Source: Roseateles sp.
Lineage (GTDB): Bacteria > Pseudomonadota > Gammaproteobacteria > Burkholderiales > Burkholderiaceae_C
Assembly: GCF_049240545.1 (NCBI RefSeq)
Contig: NZ_JBMLSK010000371.1
Coordinates: 21,608 to 85,607, forward strand
Direction of reading: 5' to 3'
Length of the DNA stretch: 64,000 bases
This document shows, one piece after another, positions 3,623 to 23,187 of the stretch (position 1 is its first letter; every line of letters starts with the position of its first letter). The notes under the pieces are model-generated. The model worked only from the letters and a program-made list of their open reading frames with translations, did no database searches and had not been told where the DNA came from. A program made the position numbers and the translations under genes.

Positions 3623-3764
3623 CGCCTGCCGATCACAAACGGTCACAAAGGCGGCACGCATCAGGCACAGACAGGCGGCAGCACGCTGTCCAGAATGAAG
3701 TCAGACGCATCAAGCCAAGAGCTGCTGCTTTCTTGCCCCGCCTTCCTGTCTCTGGAGTCCCGCC

Positions 3765-4340
3765 ATGCCTTCGTCGCGCCCTCTTCTTGCCGCCGGCCTC
3801 TTGAGCTTGTCATCAGCCTTCAGTTGGGCCGGCCCGGTCGCGCCCACGCCCATTACGCTCAATTTCAACGGCACCGACACCTGGTCGGGCAGCTTCACCG
3901 CGCTCAGCAGCGGCAGCAACAGCTTCGTCTTGGACCTGAGCCCTTTCGCCGGCATGCAGCTCGGTGGCTTGACGGTCTTGCTGTCCTCCAACTTCTTGAG
4001 CAATAGCGGCTATGACATCAGCAGCGCCAGCTTCGGTGGCCAGGCCTTCAAGCCCTTGCTTGATCAGACCTATCCAGGTCTTGGCGGCGCTGATCTGTGG
4101 CTGTTCAGCACCTCCTCATGGAGCCCCGCACCGCAGCTGATCCAAGTGACGGGGCAGTTGCTGGGCGGCACGGTGGGCTTCACCGGCTCGGTCAGCCTGA
4201 TCGCCCAGCCCGTGCCCGAGCCCGCCAGCTATGCGCTCTTGATGCTGGGTCTGGCCGGCATCGCTTGGGTGCGCCGACAACGTCAGCCGCAGAACTATGG
4301 GCGCTTGGTACACCTGCCTGAGCCCAAAGTCCTGCGCTGA
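3765..4340 (+). CDS. PEP-CTERM sorting-domain surface protein
   Basis: Signal peptide (LLAAGLLSLSSAFSWA), beta-rich S/G/T body, VPEPASYALLMLGLAGIAWVRRQR tail; SD GGAG before ATG. Confidence 0.9.
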   Translation: MPSSRPLLAAGLLSLSSAFSWAGPVAPTPITLNFNGTDTWSGSFTALSSGSNSFVLDLSPFAGMQLGGLTVLLSSNFLSNSGYDISSASFGGQAFKPLLDQTYPGLGGADLWLFSTSSWSPAPQLIQVTGQLLGGTVGFTGSVSLIAQPVPEPASYALLMLGLAGIAWVRRQRQPQNYGRLVHLPEPKVLR

Positions 4341-5763: not shown

Positions 5764-6474
5764 TCAGTCTTTGGCGAAAAGATAACCCTGCCCCCGCACG
5801 GTCTTGATGCGCGCGGCCGCCTGGGCGTCATCGCCGATTTTCTTGCGCAAGCGCGAGACCCGGGCGTCGATGGCGCGGTCCAGGCCATCAAACTCGATGC
5901 CGCGCAGGCCTTGCATGATGTCTTCGCGAGTCACGACGGTGCCAGCGCGTTCGGCCAGGAAGAGCAGCAGGTCGTACTCGGCGGTGGTCAACTCGATGGT
6001 GACCTCACCCAAGCGGGCTTCGCGCGCACTCGGCTTGATCAGCAGCTCACCAAAGCGCAACTCATCGGCCGAATCCTCAGCAGCGCCGGCTGGCTCGCGA
6101 CGCAACAAGGCCTTCAGCCGCGCCATCAAGACGCGCGGCGCCACCGGTTTGGTGATGTAGTCGTCGGCACCACCCTCCAAGCCCAACACCTGGTCGATAT
6201 CGTCATCGCGCGCGGTCAGCATGACGATGCGGCCTTTGAAGTCACGCCGTACATCGCGCAGCACATCAAAGCCGTCTTTGCCGGGCAGGTGCCCGTCCAG
6301 CAGCACCACGTCAAAGGCCTCGGCGCGCATGCGGGCCTCGCCCTCCAGGCCGTTGGCGCAATGGCTGACTTCATAGCCGGCGCGCGTCAGGGCCTCCAGA
6401 ACCAATTCGGCCAGGCGCTCATCGTCTTCGATCAAGAGAATTCGGGCGGCGCTGGCCGTGCTTTCAGTGCTCAT
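5764..6474 (-). CDS. OmpR-family response regulator (RstA-like)
   Basis: LLIEDD, VLLDGHLPG, GADDYITKP, C-terminal wHTH IKTVRGQGY. Confidence 0.95.
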   Translation of the reverse strand: MSTESTASAARILLIEDDERLAELVLEALTRAGYEVSHCANGLEGEARMRAEAFDVVLLDGHLPGKDGFDVLRDVRRDFKGRIVMLTARDDDIDQVLGLEGGADDYITKPVAPRVLMARLKALLRREPAGAAEDSADELRFGELLIKPSAREARLGEVTIELTTAEYDLLLFLAERAGTVVTREDIMQGLRGIEFDGLDRAIDARVSRLRKKIGDDAQAAARIKTVRGQGYLFAKD

Positions 6475-11997: not shown

Positions 11998-13632
11998 TTG
12001 AAGACAAGCCACGACGGGGCCGTGCCCCAACTGCCTGCCAAAGCCAATCTGCAGCAACTCAAACGCCAAGCGCGTGAACTGCTGCGCGCCTGGCAAGCCG
12101 CCGACCCAGCCAGCCTGGCACGCGCCGCCCCTTATCAACGGGCCCACGCCCCCGAGCCACCCAAGCTGAGCCTGGCTCAGCTGGTGATTGCGCGTGAGCT
12201 GGGCTTCCCGAGCTGGCCGGCGCTGCAAGCGGCGGTGTCGACCCAAGAACAAGCGCGCCAGCTGGACAGCGCGGCCCTGGTGCAACGCGTCTTGGCGCTG
12301 AGCCTGGGTCGCGGCTGGGACAGCCCCCAGCCTGAACGCGCCCTGGCCCTGCTGCAGCAAATGCAAGGCGCTTGCCCCCGTGAGTTGCGCCCCGCCCTGG
12401 CCCTGCTGCGCGGCGAATTGGACGCGCTCGAGAGCCCGCCCACGGCCGGGCAGCGTCTGCCGCCCTTCGATGCACCGGCCTTGGCCTATGTCTGCTTCTC
12501 CGGCCTGCACCGGCTGGGCGAGCCCTGGGCCAGCGGCCTGTTGCGCAGCGCCCAGACCCTGCATTCACCGCTGAGCCCGGCCGCCCTGAATGCACTGCGC
12601 ATGCCCGACCCCGATCTGCCCGCTGAAGCCGATTCATCCGATTCAGCCGAAGTGCCCAGTCTGCCGCTGCTGTACGGCGCCATCGCCCGAGCACAAAGCC
12701 CGGCGCTCGCCGCCGCCCTGCTGGCTGCCGGCGCCGAGCCCAACGATGGCGAGTCGCTGTATCACGCTTGCGAAGACCCCGACCGGGCTCGCGCGGCACT
12801 GCAAATCCGCCAACTGATCGCCCATGGCGCGCGCTTGCAGGGCACAAACGCGCTCTTGCGCTTGCTCGACTTTGAGGACCTTGCCGGCCTTGAGTTGGCG
12901 CTGAGCCTGGGGGCCGATGTCAATGAAGCTGGCCCGCAAGGCGGCCATGCCTTGCACCATGCGCTGCGCCGGGGCCGCTCCAGCGCCTGCCTGAAGCTGC
13001 TGATCGCGCAGGGTGCCGATCTTTCGGCACGCGACGCCGAGGGCCGCACGCCGGCCACTTTGGCGGCGCTGCTCGGTGAGCTTGAAGCGCTCAAGTTGTT
13101 CGCGGCACAGGGCGCCCAGCCTGAATTGCCATCCACGCGAGAACGCTTCTTGGCGGCCTGCGCGGCCGCCGATGAACACAGTGCCCGGGCCCTGCTGCAA
13201 GCGCAGCCCGATCTGCTGATTCTGCTCGGCCCACAAGAGCTGCGCCTGCTGCCCGACCAGGCGCAACGCCGCGCACGAGCCTCCGTGGCCTTGATGCTGT
13301 CGCTGGGCTGGCCGATTGCGGTGACAGGCGACTGGGACGCCAGCGCCCTCAACCAAGCGGCCTTCAACGGCGACGCCGGCCTGGTGCAACTGCTGCTGGA
13401 GCACGGCGCCCGCTGGCAAGAGATCAACGGCTTTGGCGGCGATGTGATGGGCAGCTTGCAGCATGCCGCCGTGCATCTGCCGCAGCCCGGCGGCGACTAT
13501 CTGGGCACGCTGCAAGCCTTGTTGGCGGCCGGTGCGCCCTGGCCGACAGAGGATGAGCGGGAGGAATTGCCACCCGTCCTGCAAGCCTGGCTGGATGATT
13601 CGGAGCCGCTGTCGCCAGCGCCCCAAGGCTAG
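11998..13632 (+). CDS. Ankyrin-repeat protein with small N-terminal helical domain
   Basis: N-terminal LPAKANLQQLKRQARELL...AQLVIARELGFPSWPAL; ankyrin repeats (GESLYHA, GGHALHHA..LLIAQGADLSARDAEGRTP, SALNQAAFNGDAGLVQLLLEHGA). TTG start at 11998 sits 5 nt after GGAGGT. Confidence 0.88.
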   Translation: MKTSHDGAVPQLPAKANLQQLKRQARELLRAWQAADPASLARAAPYQRAHAPEPPKLSLAQLVIARELGFPSWPALQAAVSTQEQARQLDSAALVQRVLALSLGRGWDSPQPERALALLQQMQGACPRELRPALALLRGELDALESPPTAGQRLPPFDAPALAYVCFSGLHRLGEPWASGLLRSAQTLHSPLSPAALNALRMPDPDLPAEADSSDSAEVPSLPLLYGAIARAQSPALAAALLAAGAEPNDGESLYHACEDPDRARAALQIRQLIAHGARLQGTNALLRLLDFEDLAGLELALSLGADVNEAGPQGGHALHHALRRGRSSACLKLLIAQGADLSARDAEGRTPATLAALLGELEALKLFAAQGAQPELPSTRERFLAACAAADEHSARALLQAQPDLLILLGPQELRLLPDQAQRRARASVALMLSLGWPIAVTGDWDASALNQAAFNGDAGLVQLLLEHGARWQEINGFGGDVMGSLQHAAVHLPQPGGDYLGTLQALLAAGAPWPTEDEREELPPVLQAWLDDSEPLSPAPQG

Positions 13633-13642
13633 GCCTAAGGCT

Positions 13643-16045
13643 TCAAACCTCCAGGAGCTTGCTGCGCTGGGCCTGATTGGCTTGATCGATGCGGGCCAGC
13701 ACCGCCTTGAAACGGGGCAGTTCCCGCAAGCTTTGCAGCGCCGGGTCCTGCGCCAGCCACCAGCCTCGCCGCCAGCCCAGGCGAACCGCGTCCTCCAAGG
13801 CCGCCAGCGCCGCCTCGGGCTGGCCGCGCATCGCAGCAATGCGGGCGCGGTGATAGCCGATGGCGTGCCAGACATTGCCTTGCTTGGCATAACGCTCGAT
13901 GAAGCTGGAGGCCTGCTCAAGGAAGGGCTCGGCTTGCTCGCGGCGCTCGGTGGCGCAGTAAATGGCGGCCACATCGAGCCAGGCATGCTGGCCCAGAAAG
14001 GTGCTCCAGTCGTCGTACAAGGGCACGGGGTCGGCCAGAACCAGCCCAATCACAGAGCTCAAGGTCTTGTAGGCCTGCTCGGGCTGACCCAGCAAGAGGC
14101 GCAGCAAGGCAGTCTCGATGACCGCATCGCGCTCCTTGCTCTGCACCGGCAAGGCATCGACCGCCTTGCTCAGGGCCGGCCGGTCTTGCGCGCAGACCCA
14201 CAGCCGCGCCGCTGAGACCTGCGCCCAGACCGGCTGCGGGCTTTGCGCCTGGAACTGGGCGAAGGCCTGCCGGGCTTCTTCAATCATTCCCAGATCTAGG
14301 TAGATCCAGGCCAGTTGATCCCAAAAGTAGGCGTCTTTCGGTTTGATCATGAGGGCTTGGCGATAGCCCTGCACCGCTTCATCGAGCCGCCCCCTGGCAA
14401 AGCCAATGATGCCGAAACCCCGAGTGCCGTTGGCATGCTTGGGCGCCAGGCTGAGCGCGCGCCGGTAGGCCTGCTCGGCGAGTTCGTAGCGGCCTGCGTT
14501 GGTGGCGGCCCAGCCCGTTAAGTGCTGGATCTGCGGCGATAGGGGGCTCAGCTCAGCCGCTCGGCTGTAGTAGCCGAGCGCCCGGGCCGGCCAGCCGGCG
14601 CTGTTCTCGGTGCCCCCAGCCCAGAACAGCAGGGTGGCATCGTGCGGCGCCTTGGCCAATGAACGCTCATGCCAAACCCTGGCCTCGTCATGCTGGCCGC
14701 GATGGGACAGCAGACTGCCCTGCGCGCCCAGGGCCAGCGGCAGCTGCGGGTCCAATTGCAAGGCCCGGTCGACCAAGGGCTGGGCACGTGCATCCATGGC
14801 ACGAAAGCTCAGCCCGTTACCGTAGAAATATTCGCCAATCCAGGTCACGGCCTGGCCCACATAGGCCAAGGCGAAGCCGGGATCGGCGTCGATGGCGCGT
14901 TGGAAGTAGGCGCGCGCCTTCAAAATGCCCTCGATCTGAGCGTCGCGCTGATAGTGCAGACCCAGCAGGTAAAACTCATAGGCGTCGGCCAGGGGCACGG
15001 GTGTCGTGTTGGCCGGCAGCGGCGCCACGCCCAGGGCCTGCAAGGCGGCGTTGGCGGCGCTGACAGCCAGGCTGCCCAACGCAGCGGCAGGAGACTCCAG
15101 CACCTGCTGCCAGAGCACTTCGCTGTCCACCGCACGGTGCAGGCTGAGCTTGAGCTGCAGGCCCTGCTGCCAGCGCCGCAGCTCCCCCCAGAGCACATGG
15201 GTCACGGCCAACTGCTTGGCCTGCGGCGCCAGAGCCTGGGCAGTGCGGAATTTGAAAGAAGTGGCGCGGGCCGCCACCCGGATCTGCTGATGGCCGGACA
15301 GCGCGCCGATCACGCTTTCGGCCAGGCCGTCGGCCAACGGCTGCTCCAGCGCCTTGGGCGAGGTGTCATCAAAGGGCAGCACGGCCAGGGTGATATCACC
15401 CGCCGGCATGCGCGCAGCGCGCTGCCAGAGCCACCAGCCGCCCGAGCCCAACATGGCCGCTGCACCGGCTGCCGAACCGCCAAGCAGCAGGCGACGGCGG
15501 CGCGGCGTCGGCGAGGCCGCCAGCGCCAGCGGTGCAACATCGAGCCGCGGAGGCTCCGGTGCCGGCTCCGGGGCAGGCTCGGCCTGCTGTGGCGCTGATG
15601 CCGCGACAGACAAGACTTGGGTTGATGTGGCGGCGGGTGTTGCGGCGGGTGTTGCGACTCGCATGACCTCGGCCTCGGCCGACACCTCGCTGACCGCGGC
15701 CACCAGACGATAGCCCTTGCGCGGCACGGTGACGATGTAGCGCGGCTGGCTGGCCTCATCACCGAGCACGCTGCGCAGCTGCGAGATCGATTGGTACACC
15801 GAACTTGGGGTTACTACCAAGTCCGCCCAGACCTCGTCGAGCAGCTGATCCAGGGTCACCAGCTGTTGCGGCCGGCGCGCCAGTGCCATCAGCAAGCGCA
15901 TCTTGCGCGGTTCCAGCTTGACCACTTGCTCGCCCCGGCGCAGCTCGTCCAACACCGGATCGGCCTGCCATTCGCCGATCTGCACGGTCCGCGCGGCCAG
16001 GGGATCGGCGTCTGCGCCCGGCTTCAGTGACTCGCCCCCGTTCAT
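13643..16045 (-). CDS. CadC/ToxR-like membrane-anchored regulator: OmpR-type wHTH, TM, TolB-like domain, TPR repeats
   Basis: KLEPRKMRLLMALA..VTLDQLLDEVW..SVYQSISQLRSVLGD...YIVTVPRKGYRL; Pro/Ala linker; TM ending GGWWLW; LAVLPF...ADGLAESVIGALS; many TPRs. Start ATG 16045 preferred. Confidence 0.9.
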   Translation of the reverse strand: MNGGESLKPGADADPLAARTVQIGEWQADPVLDELRRGEQVVKLEPRKMRLLMALARRPQQLVTLDQLLDEVWADLVVTPSSVYQSISQLRSVLGDEASQPRYIVTVPRKGYRLVAAVSEVSAEAEVMRVATPAATPAATSTQVLSVAASAPQQAEPAPEPAPEPPRLDVAPLALAASPTPRRRRLLLGGSAAGAAAMLGSGGWWLWQRAARMPAGDITLAVLPFDDTSPKALEQPLADGLAESVIGALSGHQQIRVAARATSFKFRTAQALAPQAKQLAVTHVLWGELRRWQQGLQLKLSLHRAVDSEVLWQQVLESPAAALGSLAVSAANAALQALGVAPLPANTTPVPLADAYEFYLLGLHYQRDAQIEGILKARAYFQRAIDADPGFALAYVGQAVTWIGEYFYGNGLSFRAMDARAQPLVDRALQLDPQLPLALGAQGSLLSHRGQHDEARVWHERSLAKAPHDATLLFWAGGTENSAGWPARALGYYSRAAELSPLSPQIQHLTGWAATNAGRYELAEQAYRRALSLAPKHANGTRGFGIIGFARGRLDEAVQGYRQALMIKPKDAYFWDQLAWIYLDLGMIEEARQAFAQFQAQSPQPVWAQVSAARLWVCAQDRPALSKAVDALPVQSKERDAVIETALLRLLLGQPEQAYKTLSSVIGLVLADPVPLYDDWSTFLGQHAWLDVAAIYCATERREQAEPFLEQASSFIERYAKQGNVWHAIGYHRARIAAMRGQPEAALAALEDAVRLGWRRGWWLAQDPALQSLRELPRFKAVLARIDQANQAQRSKLLEV

Positions 16046-16175
16046 GAGAAATTCCCGTAAACCATTGATTTCATTGAAAAACAAAACCTTGAGAGAAGCG
16101 TAAGAGTTCCATCAGGACTCGCCGGGCGTGGCCGCCGACCATGGCACCACATTGACATCACGCCAGGGAGCCCCG

Positions 16176-17072
16176 ATGCGCAGCAAGCAGACTCAAACAC
16201 CGTTTCAGAGCCACATGCTGGACCCAGCCGGCACGCCGGATGATTGTGCGGGAGCCCGGCTCGCAGCCCGGGGGGATTGCCCCCCTAACTTGAAGTCTCA
16301 TGGCTTCAGCCCGTCTCAACCTGGGTCCGTCGCTGAGTTGCTTTGGCGTCGGTGGCCCAGCACCACCACGGCGCGTCAACCCTGGCGCGTGGCGGCCGTG
16401 GAGAAGCCCAAGCTGAGCCGTCTCGCCTTGCTGGCCGCCCTGTGCACGGCGGCCAACGCCCAGGCCGCGAATGTGACTTTCAACAGCGAGACCAGCTTCC
16501 TGGCAGCAGTAGGCGCGGTCAATGCTGAGACCTTCAACGCCTTCAGCACGGACACTAACAACGACCTGTTTGGCGTACCCAAAGCGCTCACTCTGAGCGG
16601 CTTCACGCTGAAGGGTGCCTGGAACGTGGATGCCCCAGACCCCGGCACAGACCCGCTGCGGACCATCGACGGCAGCACCCATGTGCTCATCGACTTGGCC
16701 TGGGGCGGCGGGACCGACCTGCGATTTGACGCACCCACCAAGGCCTTCGGCGCTTGGTTCCGCGGCGCGCCCACAGCCATCAAGGTGGATGGCGACAGCC
16801 TGGACGGCTTTGGCTCCTACCGCCACGTCGCTGAACTGCGCCCCGAGTTCGCCGCCCAAAGCGCACTGCAATTCATCGGCTTCACGTCGGACCAGACCTT
16901 CAACCGCCTCATCTTCCTTGGGAATGGCTGCTGCCGTTGGAACTTCGCCATCGACAACCTCAGCTACGCCGCCACGCTGGCACCCGTGCCCGAGCCCGAG
17001 AGCTGGGCGCTGATGGCGGCGGGCTTGTTGGGCTTGGGAGCCCGGGCATGGCGCAAAGCAGCGCAGGTCTGA
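16176..17072 (+). CDS. PEP-CTERM sorting-domain protein (beta-sandwich cargo); start uncertain (16176 ATG or 16398 GTG)
   Basis: Signal h-region LSRLALLAALCTAANAQA; tail VPEPESWALMAAGLLGLGARAWRK; SD GGGAG before ATG 16176. Confidence 0.85.
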   Translation: MRSKQTQTPFQSHMLDPAGTPDDCAGARLAARGDCPPNLKSHGFSPSQPGSVAELLWRRWPSTTTARQPWRVAAVEKPKLSRLALLAALCTAANAQAANVTFNSETSFLAAVGAVNAETFNAFSTDTNNDLFGVPKALTLSGFTLKGAWNVDAPDPGTDPLRTIDGSTHVLIDLAWGGGTDLRFDAPTKAFGAWFRGAPTAIKVDGDSLDGFGSYRHVAELRPEFAAQSALQFIGFTSDQTFNRLIFLGNGCCRWNFAIDNLSYAATLAPVPEPESWALMAAGLLGLGARAWRKAAQV

Positions 17073-18552
17073 GGTCTGGGGCTGCGACGCCCGTCCACGC
17101 CCTCATCCGCTGACCCACACGCCTTTTCCTTTTTCTCTCTCTCACTCTTTCACTCAAGGAGTCCCTCATGTCCCTCACCACCCTGATTGCCCGCGCATCC
17201 AGCGCCTTGCTGCTGCTGGCGCTGGCATGGCCTGCCCAGGCCAACAAATTCTTCGTTCAGTTCGACGACATCAAGGGCAGTTCAACCGACCAGGAGCATC
17301 GTTCCTGGACCGAGATCGCATCCTTCGCCTGGGGCCTGAGCAGCGACGGCGCCAGCAAGACAACAGCGATGGACTTCAGCTGGGAACAACTGATGGACAG
17401 CTCCACCGTGCCCCTGCTGCTGGCCGGCGCCAGAAAGCAAGTGCTCAATCCGGTGACCTTCGAGGTCGAGAACAACGCCGGTCAGCAGTTCTTCCAGATG
17501 ATCTTCAGCAATGCCATCGTGAACGGCATGACGGTGGACAGCAACGGCAATGACATCAATGCCGCAGGCAGCTTCAACTTCAGCAAGGTCGTCCTGAACT
17601 ACCGCCCGATTGAAGCCGACGGCAAGCCGGGCAAGGTACTCACCGCCTCGCTGAATTTCAGCACCAATGTGTTCACCGGCGACGCCCTGGCCTTCAACGG
17701 CCTCTTCTTGGCCGGCGGCCAAGTGAGCATCGATGGCGGACTGCCGATCACGAACCCTGTGCCGGAACCCGCAAGCTGGGCGCTGATGGCTGCGGGCCTG
17801 CTGGGCCTGGGCTGGTGGACTCGGCGACGGGCGGGTTGCATCGCAGCTCATGCAGGGCTGTGTGTGAACGCGGCCCGGCCCTTGACAACGAACACCTCTC
17901 AGGAAGCCCGATGAACTCCAACAAACTTCGACATACCGCTCTCGCATTCGCCCTGGCGCTGGCCCTGGCACCCGCCCACGCCGTGGCGACCATCGATGTA
18001 CCCGAGGCGGCCATCGAGTCCATCTTCGCCAATACAGGCCTGTCCATTGACCTGCGTCTTTCGGCGGGCCGCAGCCTGGTGAATGCCAGTTTGCTAGACC
18101 TGAATCGCAACGAGTTCTTCTCGCTGCGTTCGACGCTGGGCTTGGCCGCTGCCAATCCCAGCGTGGCCCTGGTGTTCGTGGACACCCTGAACTTCACTGA
18201 TTTCAGCGCCAACCAGGATGCTGTTGCCGGGGTCGGCTTGGGCGCGACGGCCATCGAAGCCGCGGCCATGGCGAGGCTGTTTGGCGCACACGTCACCGCG
18301 CAGAGCCTGGGCTACAACATGGGTCTGACCACGGTGGCGGGTTCGAACGGCAACCTAATGAACCCGACCTACCTGGACATCGCCAACAACCCGGCGGGCC
18401 TCACCCAGGTGCAAATCCAGAAGATCCTGCTCAGCCCACTGCTGCAGACCGATACGAACGGCCAGCGCTTCATCGACATTCTGCCGGTCTATGTGACGGC
18501 CACGGCTGCGGTGCCCGAGCCCGAGAGCTGGGCGCTGATGGCTGCGGGCCTG
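16986..18552 (+). repeat. Near-identical DNA copies of the PEP-CTERM tail in three adjacent genes
   Basis: 32-nt identity GTGCCCGAGCCCGAGAGCTGGGCGCTGATGGC at 16986-17017 and 18511-18542; 27-nt identity AGCTGGGCGCTGATGGCTGCGGGCCTG at 17774-17800 and 18526-18552. Confidence 0.9.
17168..17914 (+). CDS. Hcp (T6SS tube protein)-like domain with Sec signal peptide and PEP-CTERM anchor
   Basis: FVQFDDIKGSSTDQEHRSWTEIASFAWGL, DFSWEQLMDSSTVPLL, FNFSKVVLNYRPIEADGK parallel Hcp1 motifs; N-terminal LLLLALAWPAQA; tail VPEPASWALMAAGLLGLGWWTRRR; SD AAGGAG. Confidence 0.8.
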   Translation: MSLTTLIARASSALLLLALAWPAQANKFFVQFDDIKGSSTDQEHRSWTEIASFAWGLSSDGASKTTAMDFSWEQLMDSSTVPLLLAGARKQVLNPVTFEVENNAGQQFFQMIFSNAIVNGMTVDSNGNDINAAGSFNFSKVVLNYRPIEADGKPGKVLTASLNFSTNVFTGDALAFNGLFLAGGQVSIDGGLPITNPVPEPASWALMAAGLLGLGWWTRRRAGCIAAHAGLCVNAARPLTTNTSQEAR

Positions 18553-18609
18553 ATAGGTCTGGGTGCGCTGCAGCGCCGTCGCCTTCGCAACTCACAGGCC
18601 GGCGCCTAA
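17911..18609 (+). CDS. PEP-CTERM protein with degenerate metzincin-like domain
   Basis: ATGA overlap with the previous stop; signal ALAFALALALAPAHA; AQSLGYNMGLTT...NLMNP; tail VPEPESWALMAAGLIGLGALQRRR. Confidence 0.82.
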   Translation: MNSNKLRHTALAFALALALAPAHAVATIDVPEAAIESIFANTGLSIDLRLSAGRSLVNASLLDLNRNEFFSLRSTLGLAAANPSVALVFVDTLNFTDFSANQDAVAGVGLGATAIEAAAMARLFGAHVTAQSLGYNMGLTTVAGSNGNLMNPTYLDIANNPAGLTQVQIQKILLSPLLQTDTNGQRFIDILPVYVTATAAVPEPESWALMAAGLIGLGALQRRRLRNSQAGA

Positions 18610-18659
18610 ACACAGCAGTCCATTCACCGCCCACGCTTTCAATGCAACAGGAATAGCCC

Positions 18660-21422
18660 ATGAGCACCCCCTTCAACACCTCGCGCACTGCCCCGGAGCG
18701 CCTGCGCCTGAACACCCTCGCCCTGGCCTGCCTGCTGCTGTCCGGCCCCGCCGCGCTGGCCGCACCCGGCGGCCGCACCACCATCGTCGTCAGCACGGGC
18801 GACAGCCTCAGCGGCTTGGAGGCAGGCACCACAATCAGCCAGGTGCAGGGGCCTCTCTCCTTGGGCGAGGCCGGGGATCTCGGCTTCATGAGCTTACTGG
18901 CCGGCAAGTCGGTCACCAAGGGCAACGATGCCGCCTACTGGCAGGGCACGACGCTGGCCGCGCGGGAAGGCGCGGCCGTCAATGGGCTGGCCAAGGGCCA
19001 GACGCTGTTCGGCTTCAACCCATTGGGTGACGGTAGCTTCATGGGCTTCATCACCGGGCCGGGCACCGTCTCGGGCAACGAGGTGGGTCTGTGGTCCGGC
19101 GGACAGTTGCTGGCACGGACCGGCACCCTGATCAGCAAAGACCTGGCCGGCCGCGCCGTAAACGGCCAGTTGACACGCATCGACAACACCTGGCGCAGCC
19201 GCAGCGGTGCGCTGCTGTACAGCGCACCGCTGCAAAGCAGCAGCACCCCGTCCGACCCGGCCCGCCACAGCCTGTGGCGCGACGGCAGCCTGCTCCGGCT
19301 CAGCGGCGACGCAGCCCCGGGGCTGGCGGGTAGCTTCACCGAGTTCCTCCAAGCCGACAGCAATGCCACTGGAGCGCTGGCCTTCGTCGCCAACCACAAC
19401 GACACCAGCCAGCGCTTCACCGGCGCCACGTCGGGCCTAGTGGTGCAGCAGGGCGTATGGCGCGGCCAGACGCTGCTGGCACGCTCGGGCGGCAGCGCGG
19501 CCGGCACGGGGCAGAGGTTCATCAATTTCAGCCAGGTGATGCTGGCCGACAACGGCCAAGTGGCCTACAGCGCGCGGGTGACGCCACAAGACTTCAACCA
19601 AAGCGAGCTGTCGATCTGGCGGGACAACGCCCTGGTGGCGCTGTCGGGGAGCTTCATCAGCGTGGCGGGACAGAACTTCAGGCTGGGCGACCCCGGCCTG
19701 CACGGCATTGCCCGCGACGGCGCGGTTGTCTATGAAGGCCGACTGATCGGCAACAGCGAAACACTGGACGCCCTGTGGCGCGACCAGGTCGTGCTGGCCC
19801 ACACCGGCCAAGCCAGCAGCGCAGACGGCCTGCAAAACCTGGCGCTGGGCGGCCTGAGCTTCCGCACACTGGCCAAGGGCGGGCAGGTATTGATGCAGAC
19901 ACAGCTGGTGGGCGCAGGCGTGACCACCAGCAATGACCACGCACTCGTGCTGACCGATGGCATCGAGCAGGTGCTGGTGGCCCGCACCGGCGACGCGGTG
20001 GGCAGCAGCGACGTGGTGCTGCGTCTGGGGGCTGCCACCGTTAACGACAAGGGCCAGGTGGCCTACCAGGCTGATCTCACCAAGGGCAAGGAGAACGCCT
20101 CCATCTTCACGCCAACGCTGCGCTGGCGCGGCAGCGGCAGCAGTGGCAGCTGGAGCGACACGGCGAACTGGACGCTCGGCCTCAACCCGGCCGACGTACA
20201 CGACGTAGTGCTGGACGCCAACAGCCGTCTCACCGTGACTGGCCCGACCGGCACGGTGAGCGTGAAGACGCTGCAGCTGGGCGCCGGCGGCGGCACCGGC
20301 CTGACCACGCTGACCATGTCCGGCGGGCGCATCAACGCCGACAGCGTGCGTGTCGGCGCGCTGGGCGTGCTCAGCGGCCACGGCAGCTTCGACGGCTTCG
20401 TGCACAACCAAGGTGTGCTGCAGGTGGAGCATCTGCAGATCACGGGCGGACTGGAGAACGCGGGCAGCGTGCGGGCGTCCACCGGCTTCGGCAGCCGGCT
20501 GGAGGCCAACCTCAACAACAGCAGCACCGGGCGCGTGCGCGTGGGCAGCGGCGAGCTGTTGCAGCTGATCGGTAAGGCGCATCAGAACGCTGGCGTTGTG
20601 GAGGTCAACGGCGGCCGGCTGGAAACCACGGGTGACCTGGCCAACGCCCGGGGTGGCATCGTCGATCTGAAGAACGCCACTGCGGTGGCCGACGGCGCCT
20701 GGCGCAACGACATCGGCGGCCGGCTGTTGATGAACGACGCTCGGCTGAGCACCAGCAGCGGCCTGGCCAACGCCGGCCAGGTGCTGATCACGTCGGGCAG
20801 CAGCGAGTTCTTCGGTGCGGTGACGAACCAAAAGGCCGGCCAGATCCTGCTTTCCGGCCAAGGTACGACCACCTTCTACGACACCGTGGACCTGCAGGCA
20901 AACAGCGAGCTGCGCACCTCGGCCGGCGCCACCGCCGTGTTCTTCGGCGCGGTGGCGCAGCGCAGCGGCGCCTTGCTCACGGGCACGGGCCACAAGTACT
21001 TCGAAGGTGGCTTCAGCGTCGGCAACTCGCCCGGCCTGGGAGAGGATGCAGGCAACGTCAGCTTCGGTCTGGGCAATGTCTACCTGGCCGAGCTCGGCGG
21101 CACCGAGCTGGGAAGCAGTTATGACCATTACCGCGTGGCCGGCACACTGACCCTGGGAGGCACGCTCAAGCTCACCTCCTTCGCCGGCTTCAGCGGCCAG
21201 GCCGGGCAGAGCTTCGACCTGTTCGACTGGGGCACGCTGCAAGGCGAGTTCAGCAGCATCGACAGCAGCGGCTTGCTGCTGGCCGAGGGTGCGCAGTTGG
21301 ATCTGTCGCGGCTGTACATCGATGGTGTGATCGGCGTGACGGCCGTGCCCGAGCCGCAGCAATGGGCCTTGTTGCTGAGCGGGCTGGGGCTATTGGCTTG
21401 GCGGCGACGCCCGGCGCGGTGA
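18660..21422 (+). CDS. Large PEP-CTERM surface protein: repeat (propeller-like) N-half plus autotransporter-passenger-like beta-helix C-half
   Basis: Signal peptide; 7 repeats of the xLWRDxxLLARxG type with N-x-x-G-x-x-A-F/Y motifs; G/N-rich beta-helix; GNSPG, GGTLKL, QSFDLFDW; tail VPEPQQWALLLSGLGLLAWRRR. Confidence 0.88.
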   Translation: MSTPFNTSRTAPERLRLNTLALACLLLSGPAALAAPGGRTTIVVSTGDSLSGLEAGTTISQVQGPLSLGEAGDLGFMSLLAGKSVTKGNDAAYWQGTTLAAREGAAVNGLAKGQTLFGFNPLGDGSFMGFITGPGTVSGNEVGLWSGGQLLARTGTLISKDLAGRAVNGQLTRIDNTWRSRSGALLYSAPLQSSSTPSDPARHSLWRDGSLLRLSGDAAPGLAGSFTEFLQADSNATGALAFVANHNDTSQRFTGATSGLVVQQGVWRGQTLLARSGGSAAGTGQRFINFSQVMLADNGQVAYSARVTPQDFNQSELSIWRDNALVALSGSFISVAGQNFRLGDPGLHGIARDGAVVYEGRLIGNSETLDALWRDQVVLAHTGQASSADGLQNLALGGLSFRTLAKGGQVLMQTQLVGAGVTTSNDHALVLTDGIEQVLVARTGDAVGSSDVVLRLGAATVNDKGQVAYQADLTKGKENASIFTPTLRWRGSGSSGSWSDTANWTLGLNPADVHDVVLDANSRLTVTGPTGTVSVKTLQLGAGGGTGLTTLTMSGGRINADSVRVGALGVLSGHGSFDGFVHNQGVLQVEHLQITGGLENAGSVRASTGFGSRLEANLNNSSTGRVRVGSGELLQLIGKAHQNAGVVEVNGGRLETTGDLANARGGIVDLKNATAVADGAWRNDIGGRLLMNDARLSTSSGLANAGQVLITSGSSEFFGAVTNQKAGQILLSGQGTTTFYDTVDLQANSELRTSAGATAVFFGAVAQRSGALLTGTGHKYFEGGFSVGNSPGLGEDAGNVSFGLGNVYLAELGGTELGSSYDHYRVAGTLTLGGTLKLTSFAGFSGQAGQSFDLFDWGTLQGEFSSIDSSGLLLAEGAQLDLSRLYIDGVIGVTAVPEPQQWALLLSGLGLLAWRRRPAR

Positions 21423-21483
21423 GCCCTGCAGCAGCTAGCTAACTGGGAGGCTGGCTGTCCGGCCGGCCGGCCAGCGAATGATG

Positions 21484-23187
21484 TCAGTCGAGCACGACTT
21501 CCGTGCGCACCGTGCCCGCCCGCTCCGCGCTGGCCGTCAGCGCCAGCCGTGTGCCCTTGGGCGCACGCACCACCCACTCGCCGATGGCACGGTCGGCAGT
21601 CAGTTCACGGGTGGGCAAGAAGGCTTGCTGCGAACTCTTGGGGGCATGACCCTCCAACTGCGGGCCTTCCATGCGTTCTTTGCCGCTGACCAGGCTCACG
21701 GTCGGATCCAGCGCAGGCAAGTGGATCTCGAACATCACGCCGCGCACCACCTTGCGCTCCAGCGCCCGCTTGGTCACATAGGCCGGCAAATAGCCGCTGT
21801 TGGCCACCGCCATGCGGATGCGCCAGCTGTCGGGGCCGAGGGCGCGCACCTCGGTGCGCAGCAACTCCAGCTTGGGCAGGCTCAGGGCGATCTGGTTCAT
21901 CCAGGCCGGGAAGCGCGCCGCCTCGCGTTCGCGCAGAGCGGGTGGCGGATTGCGCCAGTAGTTCATCTTGTCCCAACCGCCAATCTCGACGTCACCGAGC
22001 TGCGGGTGATGAAAGGGCTTCCAGTCCACATAGGCCTGGCCGCCGCATTGCTCATCGCTCCATTTCAAGAGCTTCAAATCGTCTTCCACCGGGTGCTCGC
22101 GGTACCAGTCGATCCATTTGTAGCCTTCGATGCCGGCTTCCTTGTTGGGTGACCAAATTTCCACCACCCAGAACAGCGCGCCCAGATGCTCATAGACCCA
22201 GTCTTGCGTGCCGGTGATGACTTCCTTGGGGTGGTATTTGAAGTCGTGCCAAATGCTGATGGCGGGGTAGCCGCTGTGCTTTTCACCCAGGGCCGAGAAG
22301 CGCTTGTAGCTCCACAAATCCTCGGGAATCATGTCATCGTCGCTCTGCGAACCCATGGGGCGCAGGATCACGCCGCTGTGGGTGTGATAGCTGATGGCCG
22401 CGCCAATATTCGGGTGGGTGGTGATGAAGTCCACCATGGCCCGCACCTCGGGCTCGCTGGTTGGATAAGGCCCGGCGCCCACCTGCTTGTGCTCCTGCCG
22501 CCACTCGCTGGGGAAGTTGCGGTTCAAGTCCAGGCCTTCGCGGTCTTTGTTGACGGTGACGGTCAGGCCGTCATGGTTCTTGATGAAGCCTTCCGGGTAG
22601 AGGCGGTAGTACTCGCCGCCAAACTCGCCCGGCTCGCGCGCCACCAGCAGGCGCGGCTCGGTGGGGTGTTTTTTGTAGGGACCGTGCGGGTCGGGCACAC
22701 GCATGCTGAGCATGCGGCCATCGCCGTCCACGTCTTCGGGCGTGAGGCCATCGACCGGCTCTTCGTCAAAGGGGTAGGGCCGGGTCGAAGAACGGATGTG
22801 ACGCGGCCGGTCGGCCAGCGCCAGCTCGGCACCATCTGGGTTCAGGCGCGGCACCATATAGACCGCCCGGGTGTCCAGCAGCTGCGTCACTTGCGGGTCG
22901 CTGCCATAACCGCTGAGCAGATGGTGCAGGTAGTACAAGCAGGTGGTCGAAGCGGTCAGCTCGGCGGCGTGGATATTGCCGTCCAGCCAGAAGGCGGGCT
23001 TGTCCACATCGGCGCCGGTGACGGTATTGGTCAAGACCAGCACCCAGATGGCGCGCCCCTCGTGGCTGCGGCCGATGGAGCGCACCGACACCAGATTGGG
23101 GCAGGCCTCAGCATAGGCAAACAGCAACTCGGTCAAGGGCTCATAGCGATAGAACTCATCGAATCGAGGGGTCGGGAGTGCAGCCAT
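21484..23187 (-). CDS. M14-family zinc carboxypeptidase (no signal peptide)
   Basis: DGNIHAAE (HxxE), NPDG, DLNRNFP, SYHTHSG (third Zn ligand), VEIWS catalytic Glu. Confidence 0.92.
   Translation of the reverse strand: MAALPTPRFDEFYRYEPLTELLFAYAEACPNLVSVRSIGRSHEGRAIWVLVLTNTVTGADVDKPAFWLDGNIHAAELTASTTCLYYLHHLLSGYGSDPQVTQLLDTRAVYMVPRLNPDGAELALADRPRHIRSSTRPYPFDEEPVDGLTPEDVDGDGRMLSMRVPDPHGPYKKHPTEPRLLVAREPGEFGGEYYRLYPEGFIKNHDGLTVTVNKDREGLDLNRNFPSEWRQEHKQVGAGPYPTSEPEVRAMVDFITTHPNIGAAISYHTHSGVILRPMGSQSDDDMIPEDLWSYKRFSALGEKHSGYPAISIWHDFKYHPKEVITGTQDWVYEHLGALFWVVEIWSPNKEAGIEGYKWIDWYREHPVEDDLKLLKWSDEQCGGQAYVDWKPFHHPQLGDVEIGGWDKMNYWRNPPPALREREAARFPAWMNQIALSLPKLELLRTEVRALGPDSWRIRMAVANSGYLPAYVTKRALERKVVRGVMFEIHLPALDPTVSLVSGKERMEGPQLEGHAPKSSQQAFLPTRELTADRAIGEWVVRAPKGTRLALTASAERAGTVRTEVVLD

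Follow-up and report, generated by a model that had tools for sequence, protein, structure and literature searches.

Bacteria that form flocs or biofilms or live in sediments are rich in PEP-CTERM proteins, and to our knowledge the only control described for the genes of these proteins is the global PrsK/PrsR-sigma54 system. Haft et al. (2006, PMC1569441) noted that many PEP-CTERM genes have no PrsR/sigma-54 site and that additional regulators have yet to be discovered. A 64-kb stretch from a 117-kb contig of a 5.2-Mb Roseateles draft genome (GCF_049240545.1; this whole stretch is referred to as the window) raises the question of whether such genes can also be controlled locally. Here, four co-oriented PEP-CTERM genes (pep1 to pep4) face a divergent gene for a protein resembling the regulators ToxR and CadC across a shared intergenic region (Table 1). 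Based on comparative sequence analysis, we propose, with a probability of roughly 0.6, that this protein acts locally as a one-component switch of the ToxR/CadC type, that it controls an exchangeable cassette of PEP-CTERM genes, and that the arrangement is confined to a Roseateles/Paucibacter clade within the Sphaerotilaceae.

Conserved pairing of the regulator with PEP-CTERM genes

The evidence that carries this proposal comes from related genomes. Within the genus, the regulator is present in 8 of 25 genomes (its own included), and its divergent neighbor is a PEP-CTERM gene in all 8, the seven orthologs being 65 to 77% identical. The wider sample consisted of 80 loci from GTDB species genomes, in which PEP-CTERM genes were detected with a hidden Markov model built from the sorting tails of this genome. 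Wherever the regulator reaches 52% identity, PEP-CTERM open reading frames (ORFs) lie on the divergent strand; the one exception, a truncated contig (L037), is uninformative. In a maximum-likelihood tree, the PEP-CTERM-linked regulators form a single Sphaerotilaceae clade (100/100 support) with two subclades, A and B, that are about 52% identical. A PEP-CTERM gene is divergent from the regulator in all 18 informative loci of this clade (L042 included) and is its immediate neighbor in 17; in the exception, R. puraquae, an AAA_16-TPR gene intervenes.

The flanks of the two subclades differ completely. In subclade A they are those of the window, with hybrid kinase, esterase, and ankyrin genes on one side and an M14 peptidase gene on the other; in subclade B they are P5C reductase and chorismate lyase genes, and the regulator still faces pep1-like (45 to 50% identity) and pep4-like (48 to 82%) genes. 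PEP-CTERM genes account for about 1% of the genes in this genome (53 tails in total), and a pairing that is kept through such a change of flanks is hard to explain without a functional linkage. The original prediction had made its case depend on the conservation of the adjacency in relatives, and conserved it is, in two genomic contexts and despite cargo replacement. Because every related Roseateles/Paucibacter genome with the sensor pairs it with the same class of surface protein, the sensor probably switches on the genes that it faces.

Outside the clade the pairing is not seen. About 60 loci have a regulator less than 48% identical, mostly from Steroidobacteraceae and other gammaproteobacterial metagenome-assembled genomes, and in none of them does a PEP-CTERM gene lie divergently opposite. 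Flanking PEP-CTERM ORFs occur in only two of these loci, at a distance of about 8 kb, and metagenomic homologs with 41 to 44% identity have no PF07589 neighbor. In eight distant loci of these metagenome-assembled genomes (L061, L063, L073, L074, L081, L090, L091, and L095), a gene for a secreted protein of 115 to 130 aa lies just upstream of the regulator homolog. This protein has the motif SKTV.Y.DLD...GA..LY.RI..AA..VC and no Pfam match; we presume that it resembles the UrcA family.

The regulator itself has an architecture that supports its assignment as a one-component ToxR/CadC-like receptor, as originally predicted, with a DNA-binding domain, no receiver domain, a probable transmembrane (TM) segment, and an alpha/beta domain followed by tetratricopeptide repeats (TPRs). 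Its ORF spans 13643-16084 on the minus strand (813 aa), the ATG at 16045 giving the 800-aa product. An OmpR-type winged helix-turn-helix (wHTH) was matched by Trans_reg_C (PF00486; E = 3.4e-17, 62.7 bits versus a cutoff of 26.2) at aa 53 to 127 (numbering of the 813-aa ORF), and many TPR families and a TPR end-of-group domain from Pfam and NCBIfam matched the C-terminal ~350 residues (aa ~450 to 800). No Response_reg domain was found in either database, the response-regulator equivalogs aligning to the wHTH alone, and Pfam gave no BTAD or NTPase domain. The best NCBIfam match was CadC (E = 6e-28), restricted to aa 32 to 176; against the CadC equivalog NF007540, whose full-length criterion includes the periplasmic sensor, the protein scored 97.9 bits, below the cutoff of 400. 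Among the 20 Trans_reg_C genes in the genome, this is the only one encoding a long, ToxR-like protein.

An AlphaFold2 (AF2) model built from 19 homologs had a pLDDT of 86.9 and comprised the wHTH (residues 15 to 120, pLDDT > 90), a disordered Pro/Ala-rich linker (124 to 199), a short helix (200 to 211), an alpha/beta domain (218 to 337), and a continuous TPR-like superhelix of about 12 helix pairs (353 to 800). The product matches the 800-aa protein originally described. The label "TolB-like" for the domain preceding the TPRs was matched by no family and derives from the source names of homologs and from the modeled alpha/beta domain.

A single TM segment between a cytoplasmic wHTH and a periplasmic domain is probable, judging from the sequence RRRR-LLLGGSAAGAAAMLGSGGWWLW-QR, which contains an uncharged Gly/Ala/Leu stretch of 22 aa. 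At this position the family alignment retains an uncharged stretch of 20 to 26 residues beside Arg clusters, which is plainly hydrophobic in distant homologs. Together with the TolB-like annotation of homologs at source, this argues against a soluble cytoplasmic wHTH-TPR regulator of the HilA or SARP kind, with neither a membrane receptor nor a periplasmic signal. A soluble protein would be in keeping with the low mean Kyte-Doolittle hydropathy of the stretch (~1.05 by hand calculation), with the location of the best-scoring 19-residue window (1.41) elsewhere in the protein, and with the modeling of the region, at low confidence, as a helix of 12 residues. HilA/EilA was also the second NCBIfam match, but in the wHTH part only (63 versus 589 bits), and we regard a soluble regulator as very improbable.

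In PDB comparisons the superhelix matched generic TPR superhelices, including the TPR domains of OGT and Tom71, and no specific structural relative of the sensor domain. We envisage that the TolB-N-like and TPR ectodomain would read a periplasmic cue and that its TPRs may sense a protein. That protein might be the cargo itself: as a cargo-feedback or envelope-stress sensor, the regulator would use its TPRs to bind PEP-CTERM proteins that accumulate or remain unprocessed, or the tails of these proteins, and would adjust expression of the neighboring cargo genes in either direction to exosortase capacity, with no outside signal. TPR superhelices of the OGT and Tom71 type bind extended peptides, the canonical PEP-CTERM system has a periplasmic TPR component in PrsT (PMC1569441), and the sorting tail is the only feature common to all of the varied partners described below. 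However, this explanation, which is purely inferential, seems improbable to us given that the regulator's match to PrsT is far below the cutoff (55 versus 312 bits) and that about 49 other PEP-CTERM genes in the genome are not linked to such a sensor.

The shared intergenic region

If the receptor acts as a local switch, it would bind the region between the two divergent genes through its cytoplasmic wHTH and would control transcription of the facing PEP-CTERM gene or genes, most likely by activation. The extent of this region depends on the start of pep1, which had been presumed to be an ATG at 16176, giving a head-to-head distance of ~130 nt. That ATG falls in a stretch that is non-coding in an alignment of eight loci: 16128-16397 aligns as non-coding DNA with a deletion of 58 to 75 nt in three loci, the frame of the pep1 ortholog in one genome (G002) is closed upstream, and GTG or ATG starts align at 16398, immediately before the putative signal peptide KPKLSRLALLAALCTAANAQA. 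This evidence indicates that pep1 most likely starts at the GTG at 16398, in which case the distance is corrected to about 352 nt, which agrees with the description by Haft et al. of long regions preceding PEP-CTERM genes (PMC1569441).

Several blocks of this region are conserved. The block adjoining the regulator start (16046-16125), which contains CATTGATTTCATTG and AAGAGTTCCATCAG, is kept in all clade A loci, as are GATTGTG at about 16244 and CCCCCCTAACTTGA at 16279-16292. The conserved motifs also occur in the further clade A loci L030, L093, L036, and L042, and clade B has a related CAAT/GT.AAAACAA motif just 5' of its start codon. A structured stretch (16290-16400; fold z = -2.2) precedes pep1. 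In a genome-wide search, the intergenic motifs were unique to the locus except for a truncated copy on contig C308 and a terminal repeat resembling that of an insertion sequence on contig C142, and thus no wider regulon is visible. The C308 copy (644-1111, L029), located on a 10.7-kb contig, duplicates the first ~160 codons of the regulator and about 80 nt upstream; its start codon is lost (CATGAG to GCTGAG), and a PEP-CTERM gene (528 aa) is found at a distance of 2.7 kb.

A search for sigma-70 consensus sites found none in 13400-21700. A -24/-12 sigma-54 element was found before none of pep1 to pep4; the same crude scan was at background level genome-wide (14 of 53 PEP-CTERM genes versus about 17 expected) and therefore has little power and cannot separate the cassette from the other PEP-CTERM genes of the genome. 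A TGGCAC-N5-TTGAC-like candidate for a sigma-54 promoter at 16140-16156 was rejected, as its spacing is wrong, the -12 GC is missing, and three orthologous loci have lost the string by deletion.

Within the conserved block lies a candidate upstream ORF of 10 codons, the stop codon of which (TGA) overlaps the ATG of the regulator. In the clade A loci inspected, it has equal length, an open frame, and the ATGA overlap, and its first four codons are conserved at the nucleotide level. It may represent a leader peptide, a translational coupling device, or merely a conserved 5' leader.

Cargo genes and their turnover

Table 1. Features of the regulator/PEP-CTERM locus (positions within the window)
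Feature	Position	Strand	Description and basis
ToxR/CadC-like one-component regulator	13643..16045	-	800 aa; Pfam/NCBIfam matches, AF2 model, family alignment
Candidate upstream ORF (MKSMVYGNFS-stop)	16042..16074	-	10 codons; TGA overlaps regulator ATG (ATGA)
Shared divergent intergenic region	16046..16397		352 nt; eight-locus alignment
pep1 (most likely start)	16398..17072	+	224 aa; putative Sec signal, CBM-like (carbohydrate-binding module-like) beta-sandwich, PEP-CTERM; PF07589, 9-sequence alignment, AF2/Foldseek
pep2	17168..17914	+	Putative signal peptide, Hcp-like domain, PEP-CTERM; PF05638 (E 1.7e-13), PF07589
pep3	17911..18609	+	232-aa PEP-CTERM protein; PF07589
pep4	18660..21422	+	920-aa PEP-CTERM protein; DUF7453/NxxGxxAF repeats in N-terminal half

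The PEP-CTERM domain PF07589 exceeds the Pfam cutoff in all four cargo ORFs, confirming the predicted co-oriented set, and each protein has a C-terminal PEP motif, a hydrophobic segment, and a basic cluster. By eye, each also has a signal-like N terminus of n-h-c type ending in AQA, AHA, or ALA. Beyond the sorting tails, mutual comparison revealed no likeness among the four, in agreement with the view that the cargoes are unrelated. Two of the predicted folds were recovered: the model of pep1 (pLDDT 74.7) is a beta-sandwich that Foldseek places nearest to carbohydrate-binding modules with moderate confidence (E ~1e-4, TM-score 0.45 to 0.53), and an alignment of nine pep1 sequences contains invariant motifs, while pep2 matches T6SS_HCP. 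The original designation of pep3 as a "dead metzincin" found no support in sequence searches: no peptidase family was matched in Pfam at an E value of 5 or less and no PDB sequence was matched; pep3 has a weak match to NF038129 (37 bits, below the cutoff). The match of pep4 to DUF7453 has an E value of 8.9e-40. The product of pep2 runs on for 27 residues after the basic cluster in the sorting tail (…TRRRAGCIAAHAGLCVNAARPLTTNTSQEAR; 17756-17914) into the ATGA overlap with pep3. This extension, unusually long for a PEP-CTERM end, probably arose as a side effect of the insertion through which pep2 was acquired.

The gaps between successive genes are exactly those first reported (95, -4, and 50 nt), the start of pep3 overlapping the stop of pep2 by 4 nt, and no terminator-like site was found within any of the three, again as reported. 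Tight spacing and the lack of terminators are consistent with an operon, in which the platform upstream would drive pep1 and probably also, through transcriptional read-through, the three genes behind it.

The cargo would be exported by Sec, passed to an exosortase encoded elsewhere (XrtA or XrtB), and displayed on the surface or in the matrix of extracellular polymeric substances. Candidates for this step are an XrtA-EpsI fusion on contig C49 (345.6 bits versus a cutoff of 208) and XrtB (354.5 bits versus a cutoff of 275) with EpsI-B on contig C306. Within the window, neither an exosortase nor PrsR scored above its cutoff, as the original prediction had stated for exosortase and PrsKR together; no search was made for PrsK. 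Genome-wide, 4 of 20 OmpR-type regulator genes have a PEP-CTERM tail no more than about 4 kb away, versus about 1.6 expected, which is not a convincing excess. The window contains a fifth PEP-CTERM gene, at ~3640-4280 on the plus strand (tail at 4209-4277), about 1.5 kb from an OmpR-family response-regulator gene (5764-6474, minus strand).

Across the clade, the regulator stays and its partners change. Genes orthologous or homologous to pep1 are the most frequent partners, occurring beside the regulator in 9 of 18 clustered loci, the window included; pep1 is the sole partner in three species and is accompanied by other genes in several. Homologs of pep4, which belongs to a recurring pep4-like/giant family, are found beside the regulator in five loci (L093, L044, L045, G011, and G014; 48 to 82% identity), and in other species the partner is a PEP-CTERM protein of 948 to 3,042 aa, with or without a pep4-like gene. 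Among the genomes examined, pep3 occurs only here and in the closest relative (90% identical ortholog), and pep2 only here. On the regulator tree, the partner type switches at least 4 to 5 times between the small CBM-like beta-sandwich and the giant/pep4-like proteins. Where proteins of 1,575 to 3,042 aa stand in the place of pep1, the eight-locus alignment shows that the intergenic region and signal peptide are still homologous and that the sequences diverge from the end of the signal peptide onward.

Over about 55 nt, the sequences coding for the sorting tails share 85 to 90% identity among pep1, pep2, and pep3 (16986-17040, 17756-17812, and 18506-18565). The closest relative (G001), at about 90% nucleotide identity, has the M14 peptidase gene, pep4, pep3, and pep1; pep2 is absent, and pep1 there ends in a chimera of the pep1 and pep2 tails of the present genome (L110, 10772-10864); the sequences indicate that pep2 is missing from it through recombination between tail-coding repeats. 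Near-identical tails and this chimera indicate that gene content changes by recombination between sorting-tail repeats, and such gain and loss of cargo argues against an obligate four-protein assembly. The view of the four genes as a fixed, co-assembled set, which formed part of the original prediction, is thus not upheld, with pep2 and pep3 so restricted, pep1-like and pep4-like genes occurring alone or together, and giants replacing pep1.

The closest relative also provides a natural regulator replacement. The stretch exchanged there for 6.7 kb (L110, G001:C5, 11484-18209) is exactly 13608-16419, which takes in the regulator, the intergenic region in full, and 7 codons at the start of pep1. 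The first gene of this segment, divergent from pep1, encodes a 1,054-aa BTAD-STAND ATPase-TPR (SARP/AfsR-like) protein, and the segment also encodes an 848-aa ORF without a family match. This joint exchange implies that the regulator and its cis-region move as a unit, and exchange for another wHTH-type regulator with its own cis-region is as expected if regulator and intergenic region act together on pep1. We considered whether a SARP-like regulator is a recurrent alternative partner and rejected this, as it was found only in this relative among 41 genomes, the AAA_16-TPR gene of R. puraquae being only weakly related.

As part of the proposed local control, regulator, 352-nt region, and signal-peptide start would form one fixed expression platform with exchangeable cargo behind it, cargo genes being added, deleted, or swapped by recombination at two places, the nearly identical tail-coding sequences and the point where the signal peptide ends. 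Going further, we tentatively suggest, as a possibility rather less likely than local control itself, that the locus is a fixed, sensor-controlled "display socket" into which unrelated PEP-CTERM cargo would be plugged, or from which it would be removed, by homologous recombination at these two places.

Weighing local control and its meaning

A number of observations weigh against the regulator as a local switch for these genes. The closest relative retains intact pep1, pep3, and pep4 without the ToxR-like regulator, which shows that the regulator is not indispensable for keeping the cargo genes. No recognizable promoter or repeat typical of OmpR-family operators was found in the intergenic region, and its best conserved block adjoins the regulator start and may serve autoregulation or translation only. 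A true PrsR is encoded on contig C270 (700 bits) and could control the pep genes. The putative TM stretch is weakly hydrophobic, as noted above, and distant members of the regulator family have other neighbors. Finally, truly independent events are few, and adjacency within one family-level clade is in part shared ancestry.

Some of these observations are what one would expect if the two sides were neighbors without a regulatory link, the regulator acting on other genes or on itself, the pep genes being under PrsK/PrsR-RpoN or their own promoters, and the island being gained or lost as a block. PrsK/PrsR-RpoN control of PEP-CTERM genes is documented, including in a floc study of the relative Aquincola (PMC1569441, PMC9850573), its PrsR is present here, the cargo genes of the closest relative persist without the regulator, and regulator and pep1 are jointly missing from about half of the genus, as expected of a linked island. 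However, mere linkage does not account well for a pairing that outlasts a complete change of flanks and repeated cargo replacement, nor for the fact that the displaced regulator of the closest relative was succeeded by another divergent wHTH-type regulator with a new cis-region; the absence of a -24/-12 element 5' of pep1 to pep4 points the same way, although that scan was at background genome-wide. Therefore, we consider the absence of a regulatory link unlikely, if the most serious of the alternatives, and we favor local control by the ToxR/CadC-type switch.

Such a switch would be familiar in kind. Like ToxR, TcpP, CadC, and PsaE, the regulator has an N-terminal OmpR/PhoB-type wHTH, no receiver, a probable single TM segment followed by a putative extracytoplasmic sensor at the C terminus, and a putative target gene next to it (for the family traits, see PMC5430869, PMC8517210, and PMC11358694). 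The ToxR-like MarT activates the adjacent surface-protein gene misL, and the proposed logic of a target next door is alike. In contrast to the small periplasmic domains of ToxR and CadC, the ectodomain is about 585 aa long and combines the alpha/beta domain with a TPR superhelix; unlike in ToxR-like systems, no ToxS-like or PsaF-like partner gene is present, and the proposed targets are exosortase substrates.

The PrsK/PrsR/PrsT system, described by Haft et al. 2006 and in floc studies of Zoogloea and Aquincola, likewise controls PEP-CTERM genes, has a periplasmic TPR component, and is associated with long non-coding regions upstream of these genes (PMC1569441). PrsK/PrsR is a global two-component enhancer-binding system acting at a -24/-12 promoter, whereas the regulator here is a single, local OmpR-type wHTH protein with no such element found at its cassette. 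HilA/EilA and SARP/AfsR also combine an OmpR-type wHTH with TPRs and act on nearby genes, and a SARP-like gene occupies the equivalent position in the closest relative; these proteins, however, are cytoplasmic and have no TM segment, and SARPs carry BTAD and NTPase domains, both lacking in the regulator.

Full-text literature searches returned no report of a ToxR-like regulator paired with PEP-CTERM genes, although this does not prove that none exists. Regulators of this class and the logic by which they act are well known, and the scope is narrow, being essentially one family-level clade; what appears to be new is the class of partner, exosortase substrates, together with the large TPR ectodomain and an apparent platform-and-cassette mode of evolution. 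A dedicated ToxR-type receptor for one exchangeable cassette, if true, would for the first time exemplify control of exosortase cargo that is local and specific to a signal, and it would provide a tractable handle on the function of these surface proteins, for which cultured Roseateles/Paucibacter carriers, among them R. asaccharophilus DSM 25082, R. aquae APW11, and Paucibacter sp. KBW04 and DJ2R-2, and the natural regulator-replacement strain are available. If the socket is real as well, each species would show a different set of proteins under the same environmental switch, and the locus would represent a system that exchanges cassettes for surface proteins of Gram-negative bacteria and uses the sorting signal also as a handle for recombination.

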